This document shows positions 18,003-18,304 of a DNA stretch of 24,000 bases, piece by piece. The stretch is from NCBI GenBank assembly GCA_900756555.1, contig CAAEKP010000020.1:25037-49036 (forward strand). The letters are read 5' to 3'. The position numbers were made by a program, and so were the translations under genes. The DNA comes from Peptococcaceae bacterium (GTDB lineage: Bacteria; Bacillota; Peptococcia; Peptococcales; Peptococcaceae). Numbering within the stretch: the stretch's first letter is position 1; each line of letters begins with the position of its first letter. The notes under the pieces were generated by a model that worked only from the letters and a program-made list of their open reading frames with translations, was not told the origin of the DNA and ran no database searches.

Positions 18003-18030
18003 TTTACAGGCACTTTGGTACACTTATAGT
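18003..18030 (+). promoter_or_regulatory. Candidate promoter of the small toxin mRNA
   Basis: TTTACA at 18003-18008, a 16-nt spacer, and TATAGT at 18025-18030, about 40 nt upstream of the ATG at 18071. Confidence 0.45.
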
Positions 18031-18070
18031 GTTACCGCCCTATACTGGTGACAGGAAGGGGGTGCTTGGC

Positions 18071-18163
18071 ATGGAAACCCTTACAACGTTAATACTCGCT
18101 ATTGTGGCAAGCGTGGTTAGTCATTGCGTTTGCAAATGGTTAGATAGTCGAGAGCATAGGTAA
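18071..18163 (+). CDS. 30-aa hydrophobic peptide; candidate type I toxin (Fst-like)
   Basis: METLTTLILAIVASVVSHCVCKWLDSREHR has a single TM helix followed by a WLD motif and a charged tail, as in Fst-family toxins. GGAAGGGGGTG RBS lies 7 nt upstream. The locus has a convergent sRNA and a shared terminator (see the sRNA and terminator features). Confidence 0.6.
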   Translation: METLTTLILAIVASVVSHCVCKWLDSREHR

Positions 18164-18187
18164 CCTGGTCAGCAACAGACTCAAACA

Positions 18188-18269
18188 GCAAAAAGAAAAC
18201 CCCGGTAGCTGCAACTACCGGGGTTTTCGTCTGTTTAAAATGGAATTGCCCTTACAACAATTCTTGCCT
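18188..18269 (-). ncRNA. Candidate antitoxin sRNA (about 80 nt), convergent to the toxin gene
   Basis: It is bounded by a strong promoter (18276-18304, minus strand) and the shared terminator. It contains GUUGUAAGGG...UUCCAU, which is complementary to the toxin mRNA start region AUGGAA-A-CCCUUACAAC (18071-18087). Confidence 0.5.
18196..18226. terminator. Bidirectional intrinsic terminator shared by the toxin mRNA and the antisense sRNA
   Basis: The stem aaaaccccggtag (18196-18208) / ctaccggggtttt (18214-18226) has U-runs on both strands: uuuucgucuguuu on plus and uuuucuuuuug on minus. Confidence 0.8.
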
Positions 18270-18275
18270 AGGCAT

Positions 18276-18304
18276 AGTATAGCATATGCATTTGGCAGAT
18301 TCAA
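18276..18304 (-). promoter_or_regulatory. Promoter of the candidate antitoxin sRNA
   Basis: The minus strand reads TTGAAT (18304-18299), a 17-nt spacer, and TATACT (18281-18276) preceded by TGc (extended -10). Confidence 0.55.

Follow-up and report, generated by a model that had tools for sequence, protein, structure and literature searches.

We begin by asking what may be encoded in a 300-base intergenic gap, positions 18003-18304 of a 24,000-nucleotide (nt) stretch of DNA from a Peptococcaceae bacterium (contig CAAEKP010000020.1, positions 25,037 to 49,036 of the forward strand; GenBank assembly GCA_900756555.1). This whole stretch is called the window below. The initial annotation, made from the letters of the window, read the gap as a candidate type I toxin-antitoxin locus of the par/Fst kind, in which the gene of a small membrane peptide faces a convergent antisense RNA gene. 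On every point that is open to computation this reading is supported, and we put at roughly 0.85 the probability that the locus is a par/Fst-type type I toxin-antitoxin module; within that type we place it in the SpF66/'CKWLD' branch.

What does the gap itself contain? Sequence reading, the list of open reading frames (ORFs) and a consensus scan of both strands, with counts in shuffled sequences alongside, find each element of the initial annotation in its place, to the base (Table 1). The ORF of 30 amino acids (aa) is preceded by a strong Shine-Dalgarno (SD) sequence, GGAAGGGGGTG, which ends 8 nt upstream of the ATG. The encoded peptide has the transmembrane (TM) helix that had been claimed for it and follows a simple plan: one hydrophobic helix, then CKWLD, then the charged tail SREHR. 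Residues 4-21 have a mean Kyte-Doolittle hydropathy of 2.2, W23 comes after this 18-residue hydrophobic stretch, and five of the seven residues of LDSREHR are charged, counting His. The signature of the Fst/Ldr superfamily, a Trp that separates TM helix and charged tail (PMC7472228), is present in the window peptide. The terminator, 32 nt past the toxin stop codon, is called on both strands, as a bidirectional terminator shared by two RNAs should be; it is a G+C-rich hairpin with a stem of 14-15 base pairs (bp) and the loop CUGCAA (UUGCAG on the other strand), and the predicted antisense RNA has no overlap with the ORF.

The opposite strand carries the convergent promoter that had been proposed, TTGAAT-17-TATACT preceded by TG, with its -10 element 47 nt from the terminator. 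From the positions of promoter and terminator, a small RNA (sRNA) of about 82 nt is predicted, close to the length of about 80 nt first suggested; its 5' region of 41 nt would run antisense to the first six codons of the toxin, start codon included, and the terminator hairpin would follow. Both copies of the direct repeat, one at the toxin start and one in the sRNA template, are confirmed. The second copy follows the terminator, and the sRNA runs against the mRNA, which makes the 5' part of the sRNA complementary to the start codon and first codons of the toxin. In the window this is a single interrupted repeat (6 + 10 nt) that lies over the start codon and not over the SD; its score of 22 is matched by 0.2% of shuffled downstream sequences. 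The duplex between the translation initiation region (TIR) and the 5' region of the sRNA, calculated with RNAduplex, has an energy of -26.0 kcal/mol (z = -3.8) that none of 1000 shuffles reaches. Convergent promoters, a shared terminator and repeats read in opposite directions, the marks of a par-type locus, are all present as sequence elements.

Table 1. Predicted features of the locus, in window positions.
Feature	Position	Strand	Basis or remark
Toxin promoter region, two overlapping candidates	17996..18030	+	Scan and sequence reading
Toxin mRNA (RNA I analogue), about 200 nt, to the terminator U-tract	18031..18236	+	Ends predicted; Rfam match
Leader 5' hairpin	18031..18052	+	GUUACC (18031-36) pairs with GGUGAC (18047-52)
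Shine-Dalgarno region, AGGAAGGGGGTG	18054..18065	+	G-run able to pair with anti-SD GCCCU 18037-41
Toxin ORF, 30 aa, METLTTLILAIVASVVSHCVCKWLDSREHR	18071..18163	+	ATG at 18071, stop ends at 18163
Direct repeat copy 1, ATGGAA-A-CCCTTACAAC	18071..18087	+	Start codon through codon 6; predicted antisense target
Bidirectional intrinsic terminator, common to both RNAs	18195..18228	both	Called on both strands
Direct repeat copy 2, ATGGAA-TTG-CCCTTACAAC	18240..18258	+	Within the antisense RNA template, 12 nt past the terminator
Antitoxin sRNA (RNA II analogue), predicted, about 82 nt	18188..18269	-	From promoter and terminator positions
Antitoxin promoter, TTGAAT-17-TGcTATACT	18276..18304	- (18304-18276)	Consensus scan

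Could such an arrangement be an accident, a spurious ORF beside a terminator with a fortuitous repeat and fortuitous hexamers in A+T-rich intergenic DNA? The window by itself gives this explanation some room: five promoter-like sites are found against 2.4 +/- 1.7 in shuffles and two terminator-like sites against 0.6 +/- 0.8, modest excesses that are not decisive as counts alone, and the peptide is in no protein database. Five independent contigs of the same species carry the toxin locus at 100% identity (four of them over the full 521 bases), which leaves no variation among the five that could show covariation. A six-frame scan for KWL[DEN] finds no second toxin copy elsewhere in the window. 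What decides against chance is the comparison of the locus with its relatives in other sequences, not the counts in the window.

We turn to these relatives. A tblastn search with the peptide finds 224 plasmid records, 162 of them from Enterococcus and 33 from Streptococcus, with Aerococcus, Ligilactobacillus, Clostridium, Mogibacterium and others as further hosts. A genome scan with the pattern [HY][YCI][IV]CKWLD, in one genome per species, gives at least 383 confirmed loci; the best 80 of these were retrieved, and the hosts of those 80 include Lachnospiraceae, Oscillospiraceae, Veillonella, Selenomonas, Anaerococcus, Eggerthellaceae and others. Judged from these matches, the range of the CKWLD clade would take in gut Clostridia, Negativicutes, Peptoniphilaceae and even Eggerthellaceae, together with small streptococcal and enterococcal plasmids. 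The clade peptides (68 compared) are 25-38 aa long, with K, W, L and D invariant and the C and one Ala nearly so.

The next question is whether the relatives share the layout as well as the peptide. For this comparison we used 83 distinct peptides, all with complete flanking sequence and drawn from plasmids and the genomes of gut bacteria. For each locus a script records the ORF, the terminator, the best match to the TIR (-30 to +30) in the 110 nt past the terminator and the best minus-strand promoter. Terminator, repeat and convergent promoter are found together in 76 of the 83 loci. The initial annotation had made its reading depend on the peptide and the repeat arrangement being conserved in related genomes, and in these 76 the full layout is conserved. 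The terminators stand in the same place, with stems of 12-16 bp and loops of 6-7 nt. As a rule the repeat extends from -8 to +22, and its downstream copy starts at a median of 6 nt past the terminator. An antisense promoter with at least 9 of 12 matches occurs at the same place in 79 of the 83 relatives (67 with the TG extension). The median distance from the terminator to its -10 element is 42.5 nt, and the predicted sRNA has a median length of 77 nt.

The repeat covaries. The median repeat score is 33 for cognate pairs and 14 for non-cognate ones, whose 99th percentile is 23; in 74 of the 76 loci the row maximum falls on the cognate pair. Because the repeat differs between loci and matches within each locus, selection acts on the complementarity of sRNA and TIR and not on a particular sequence. 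A conserved hairpin in the 5' region of the sRNA was also considered and rejected (median minimum free energy, MFE, -5.1 kcal/mol; median z -1.0).

Where does the toxin mRNA begin, and is its leader conserved too? The plus-strand promoter of the initial annotation, TTTACA-16-TATAGT (18003-18030; 10 of 12 consensus matches), is present and would start the RNA at about 18037. A second candidate that overlaps it, read from the sequence, is TTTTTA-17-TGgTACACT (17996-18024, with the -10 element at 18019-24), for which the RNA would start at about 18031. In the family the TG-extended toxin -10 element ends 46-48 nt upstream of the start codon. We favour the second candidate because it fits this spacing and because the Rfam match (see below) and the conserved leader hairpin both begin at 18031; the first promoter stands as a sequence, and the choice of the promoter in use is refined. 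A longer ORF of 73 aa, from a GTG at 17942, was rejected: it has neither an SD nor a family match, and the sequence that it adds upstream is conserved as promoter and leader.

The loop of the 5' hairpin holds an anti-SD, GCCCU (18037-41), and in the MFE fold of the window RNA this segment is paired with the SD. An alignment of 55 leaders has the near-invariant form GUUGCC-N-CCCC-N6-GGCAAC-AGGAAGGGGGUG. RNAalifold predicts no structure on this alignment of 55; the helices were specified by hand and their pairs were then counted over the aligned leaders. In the two helices 89.4% of the cells are paired, compared with at most 63% when the partners are slid, and the covariation score is reached by none of 500 shuffles. 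Helix 1, the 5' hairpin, is 90.7% paired; at its pair 8-27, 26 sequences have GC and 19 have AU. Helix 2, formed by the loop CCCC with the SD, is 88% paired, and its pair 15-39 changes from C-G (43) to U-A (6) exactly where the SD is GGAGG and not GGGGG. With its anti-SD placed in the hairpin loop at the 5' end, the leader would form a pseudoknot or act as a switch. The leader has the predicted intramolecular structure sequestering the SD that is a further mark of the par type, and it corresponds to the 5' stem-loop that sequesters the SD in par RNA I (PMC7472228).

Does this RNA belong to a family that has already been described? In a permissive scan, the toxin mRNA (18031-18239, plus strand) gives a full-length match to SpF66_sRNA (Rfam RF02442) with 37.1 bits and E = 2.9e-7, which misses the gathering threshold of 42 bits. 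The threshold is passed by seven of the 17 other clade loci scanned (93.8, 86.2, 68.2, 51.7, 47.3, 46.9 and 42.7 bits), so the clade is the SpF66 RNA family and the window RNA a slightly sub-threshold member. The consensus of the RF02442 model encodes MSLILELVLTIIADVIAGIILYFVCKWLD, which contains CKWLD, and a hidden Markov model (HMM) of the clade scores this consensus peptide at 31.2 bits, a value reached by none of 3000 shuffles. The predicted antitoxin sRNA matches no Rfam antitoxin family. Other sub-threshold Rfam matches on the minus strand (ctRNA_pGA1, L10 leader, His leader, ohsC) were treated as chance because all of them rest on the terminator hairpin.

F66 is a 239-nt RNA between SP2168 and SP2169 in S. 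pneumoniae TIGR4, and F67 adjoins it (PMC3395615); PneumoBrowse2 lists F67 as an Fst family toxin (PMC12323649). For S. pneumoniae R6, Fozo et al. (2010) describe tandem Fst-A/Fst-B genes between fcsR and adcA, with an antisense RNA of 65-75 nt for Fst-B and toxicity in E. coli when Fst-B is over-expressed, and their alignment already had a Clostridium bolteae sequence (PMC2887945). We take F66/F67 to be the Fst-A/Fst-B locus because of the tandem arrangement and the late position in the genome. The DVIAG of the consensus peptide agrees with the 'DxxxG S. pneumoniae clade' described in a review by Weaver (PMC7472228). The Fst-A/Fst-B locus of S. pneumoniae (F66/F67 = srn502/srn503) is the closest relative found: it has the same spacing from SD to AUG as the window, whereas its consensus peptide has four extra residues before YFVCKWLD and DxxxG where the window has AxxxS, and it is a tandem pair where the window has a single copy. 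With hundreds of relatives that keep KWLD invariant, conserved spacing, covariation of the repeat, compensatory pairs in the leader and clade members above the Rfam threshold, the explanation by accident raised above is already refuted by the comparative data, and we give it practically no credence.

How does the locus compare with the canonical par/Fst systems? Eight plasmid loci that are annotated by the Prokaryotic Genome Annotation Pipeline (PGAP) as Fst family toxin were passed through the same script as a positive control. Seven of the eight have repeat scores of 34-41, with a repeat that spans about -8 to +23 and lies 1-5 nt past the terminator, and a TG-extended -10 element at 37-45 nt from the terminator; this is the geometry of the clade. 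The earlier proposal that the locus follows the same logic as RNA I and RNA II of pAD1 par is borne out by the geometry that it shares with these seven. In par of E. faecalis pAD1 there are convergent promoters, a bidirectional terminator, direct repeats in TIR and sRNA, and a structure that holds the SD (PMC7472228), and the same set is predicted in the window. Fst peptides and the window peptide alike have a TM helix, Trp-Leu-Asp/Glu and a charged tail. The differences are that pAD1 par has PxxxG, repeats named DRa/DRb and a YUNR loop, while the window has none of these and one interrupted repeat; that a canonical Fst locus matches Rfam RF02848 and RF02844, not SpF66; and that canonical Fst genes are annotated and the genes of the CKWLD clade are not. 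For the canonical Fst plasmid locus of E. faecalis (L104, positions 270-509), RF02848 (B11) scores 105 bits on the toxin mRNA strand and RF02844 (A9) scores 54.6 bits on the antisense strand. Both families are named only 'Enterococcus sRNA' and, like SpF66, are type I toxin-antitoxin RNAs without that label.

A number of observations speak against placing the locus with par/Fst, and we consider them together. The first group concerns the peptide. The search with the Fst toxin profile that the initial annotation had recommended is negative: the window peptide has no match to Pfam PF13955, nor to NCBIfam NF033608 (E <= 10), and scans of the whole of Pfam and NCBIfam also give no match to it. For the clade as a whole, one of 68 peptides matches PF13955 and eight of 68 match NF033608, all below threshold. 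PF13955 is a poor judge because Fst pAD1 itself, with 22.8 bits, scores under the cut-off of 36; for NF033608 the control Fst EF0409 reaches 36.3 bits against a cut-off of 26. In the other direction the clade HMM gives Fst pAD1 -1.2 bits and Fst EF0409 1.8 bits (both sequences taken from PMC8147318), which is not significant. The picture is mixed, and on its favourable side an hhalign comparison of the clade (83 sequences) with canonical Fst (10 sequences) gives a probability of 88.6% and E = 2.6e-6 over 27 ungapped columns, values inflated by composition because the peptides are short and hydrophobic; it places WLD on WLD and the S/G of the clade on the Gly of PxxxG. An HMM of canonical Fst scores clade members at up to 19.3 bits, and the reverse comparison at 6.7 bits or less, scores that short hydrophobic peptides likewise inflate.

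The same group includes the motif within the helix. Most members of Fst/Ldr, not all, have P/D/S/T-xxx-G(C) there, and in Fst of pAD1 the Pro and the Gly of PxxxG are essential for toxicity (PMC7472228). At positions 13 and 9 before the Trp, the window peptide has AxxxS in place of P/D/S/TxxxG. The counts for the clade (n = 76) are SxxxS 33, SxxxG 21 and AxxxS 2. The window peptide also has S17xxxC21, but in a different register.

The second group of adverse observations concerns the RNAs. The loop CUGCAA of the window terminator contains no YUNR U-turn motif; YUNR is found in the terminator loop of 14 of the 76 clade loci and is missing from some par/Fst homologues (PMC7472228). The best-scoring toxin promoter, with its start at about 18037, would begin the RNA within the conserved hairpin and cut off its 5' arm. 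The repeat of the window lacks the usual part from -8 to -1, its score is the minimum among the 76 retained loci, and its duplex of TIR and sRNA is the fourth weakest of the 76. Taken with the sub-threshold Rfam score, a motif found in only two of 76 loci and a poor -10 element (TACACT) at the family position, these last points could describe a decaying copy, one in which a weak repeat and an altered motif have come with the loss of antisense control, of toxicity or of both. Such decay is, in our judgement, very unlikely, as nothing is broken in the ORF, the SD or either promoter, the terminator is perfect, the five independent contigs are identical, the duplex is far beyond what shuffles give, and 16 bp over the start codon are comparable to working antisense systems.

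Many of the clade loops, which are mostly of 6-7 nt, have a G/C-rich core (CUGCAA, CGGCAA, CUGGCA, CCGCCA, UUGCGAC). Such cores may matter for loop-loop contact even when YUNR is not there.

We now consider how the module would work if it is of the par/Fst type. The functional steps are drawn by analogy with par of pAD1 and Fst-B of S. pneumoniae; on this basis we infer the transcription of both RNAs, the repression of translation, the order of contacts, the relative stabilities of the RNAs and the toxicity of the peptide. A promoter near 18000-18030 would make an mRNA of about 200 nt for a single-helix membrane peptide of the Fst/Ldr kind, and the convergent TG-extended promoter would make the sRNA of about 80 nt; both RNAs would be made constitutively and would stop at the bidirectional terminator. 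The nascent toxin mRNA would mask its own SD by means of the anti-SD in the loop of the 5' hairpin until the sRNA pairs with it. This pairing would have two contacts: one at the start codon and first codons, with 6 + 10 bp around a small internal loop, and one between the complementary terminator hairpins. The pairing would block the entry of ribosomes and with it the translation of the toxin. When the unstable partner is lost, the peptide would be made and would insert into the membrane.

Is the peptide a toxin in practice? The module could be real and its product a regulatory or stress-related membrane peptide under tight antisense control, a role suggested earlier for chromosomal homologues of Fst, par-EF0409 among them. 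The replacement of the toxicity-essential PxxxG by AxxxS would suit such a role, the chromosomal region is identical in strains with and without a recombinase element nearby, and what chromosomal Fst does is admittedly obscure (PMC7472228). On the other side, the clade is common on small and conjugative plasmids (the 224 records above), where post-segregational killing is the usual function, the Fst-B of S. pneumoniae is toxic when over-expressed (PMC2887945), and it is typically harmful products that are kept under two tight controls, such as anti-SD and antisense RNA. We regard a peptide without toxic function as unlikely and retain the toxin-antitoxin module as the explanation of the locus.

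Other type I systems can be compared with this module. SprA1/SprA1AS of S. aureus, which encodes PepA1, and Fst-Sm/srSm of S. mutans are type I modules of the Fst family with antisense RNAs that overlap at the 3' end and pair functionally with the 5' TIR, beyond the region of overlap, a likeness that we take from published descriptions (PMC8594479, PMC7472228). Unlike the window peptide, theirs contain PxxxG(C), and PepA1 lyses cells from the outside. The type I toxins of C. difficile are also from Clostridia, and 35 of 68 clade peptides match their model, NF047374 (CD_typeI_toxin), weakly in its N-terminal TM part, with a best E of 2.4e-5. In the tabulated members these matches reach 14.2-16.6 bits where the cut-off is 60, and they extend over no more than positions 1-24 of the 51 in the model. 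NF047374 has no match to the window peptide, and its matches in the clade most likely reflect the composition of the TM helix. The Ldr/Rdl systems of enterobacteria share with the clade the Trp after the TM helix and the charged tail, and the Pfam Ldr_toxin profile has weak matches to eight of 68 clade peptides. In Ldr/Rdl, however, Rdl lies opposite the 5' end and regulation is like that of hok/sok, unlike the convergent layout with 3' overlap in the window (PMC2887945, PMC7472228).

Why has such a common locus remained out of sight? The initial annotation had supposed that automated pipelines would pass it over, and this proves correct in the sequences at hand. The window peptide is a called gene in none of the same-species contigs retrieved, and none of the 40 plasmid matches listed, out of 224 records, lies under an annotated feature. 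Among the unannotated plasmid matches listed are widespread small streptococcal plasmids of the erm(T) type, such as pRW35. Canonical Fst, by comparison, is found on plasmids in 153 records and is mostly annotated there as 'type I toxin-antitoxin system Fst family toxin'. The same holds for predicted proteins. A query with a 42-aa extension of the ORF finds no homologue in 5.8 billion predicted proteins, and in a collection of 15 billion proteins none of 10 representative clade peptides is present, against four of four canonical Fst peptides, present and named. A literature search gives nothing relevant on the motif CKWLD, and the name SpF66 yields a malaria vaccine only.

A large Fst-like branch is already partly described, and annotation misses it throughout. 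A wider proposal, which we hold only tentatively and consider doubtful in this full form, is that the CKWLD clade constitutes a branch of Fst that is very large, moves horizontally, goes almost wholly unannotated, has its own leader design and whose resemblance to Fst is partly convergent. For the genome studied here, two predicted genes would be gained in a gap that is unannotated in the same-species contigs retrieved. More broadly, current pipelines overlook a whole branch of predicted Fst-like type I toxins; a profile of the clade together with a rule (ORF, terminator, repeat, TG promoter) would serve both annotation and studies of plasmid stability. Our understanding of the type I mechanism itself is unchanged by this finding.

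The genes around the gap bear on the terminator. The upstream gene (17254-17703, minus strand) encodes a DUF2992 protein and is divergent from the toxin gene. Its leader is an azaaromatic (yjdF) riboswitch (RF01764; 17691-17818, minus strand; 72.1 bits against a gathering score of 45). The next plus-strand gene begins after 18384. With one neighbour pointing away and led by its own riboswitch, and the other beginning past the locus, neither flanking gene needs the terminator; the predicted module now offers an explanation for it. The gene just downstream, 18424-18845 on the plus strand, is found in all same-species contigs; its product, of 140 aa, has several hydrophobic segments and no recorded Pfam match.

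Some further observations concern the copies of the module in other genomes. Paired clade modules, 400-1500 bp apart, are seen in several genomes (L021, L031, L043, L064, L074, L075 and L098); most of the paired copies have their own terminator, repeat and antisense promoter, as in Fst-A/Fst-B, and the two in L098 were not resolved into these parts by the script. Identical or near-identical modules occur across genera. A C. perfringens plasmid and Roseburia inulinivorans are 99.9% identical over 871 bp, and the C. perfringens plasmid is 100% identical to Adlercreutzia over 366 bp (L011 against L059 and L084). A Blautia sp. and a Pseudoflavonifractor sp. contig (L053 and L063) are 100% identical over 3108 bp, where both contigs are of 5875 bp and cross-contamination is possible. 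Such identity across genera points to a transfer of the modules on small mobile elements, and it runs counter to the 2010 view that there is no horizontal spread.

The neighbourhood of the window locus also varies between strains. In the window, 20874-23910 on the minus strand holds two adjacent serine recombinase ORFs (Resolvase/Recombinase) that come after a SpoVT/AbrB-like gene in the contigs L001 and L004, and in L002, L003 and L005 a histidine kinase and response regulator pair takes the place of the recombinases. The recombinase insertion is strain-variable and lies about 2.5 kb from the toxin locus, which is identical in both kinds of strain.

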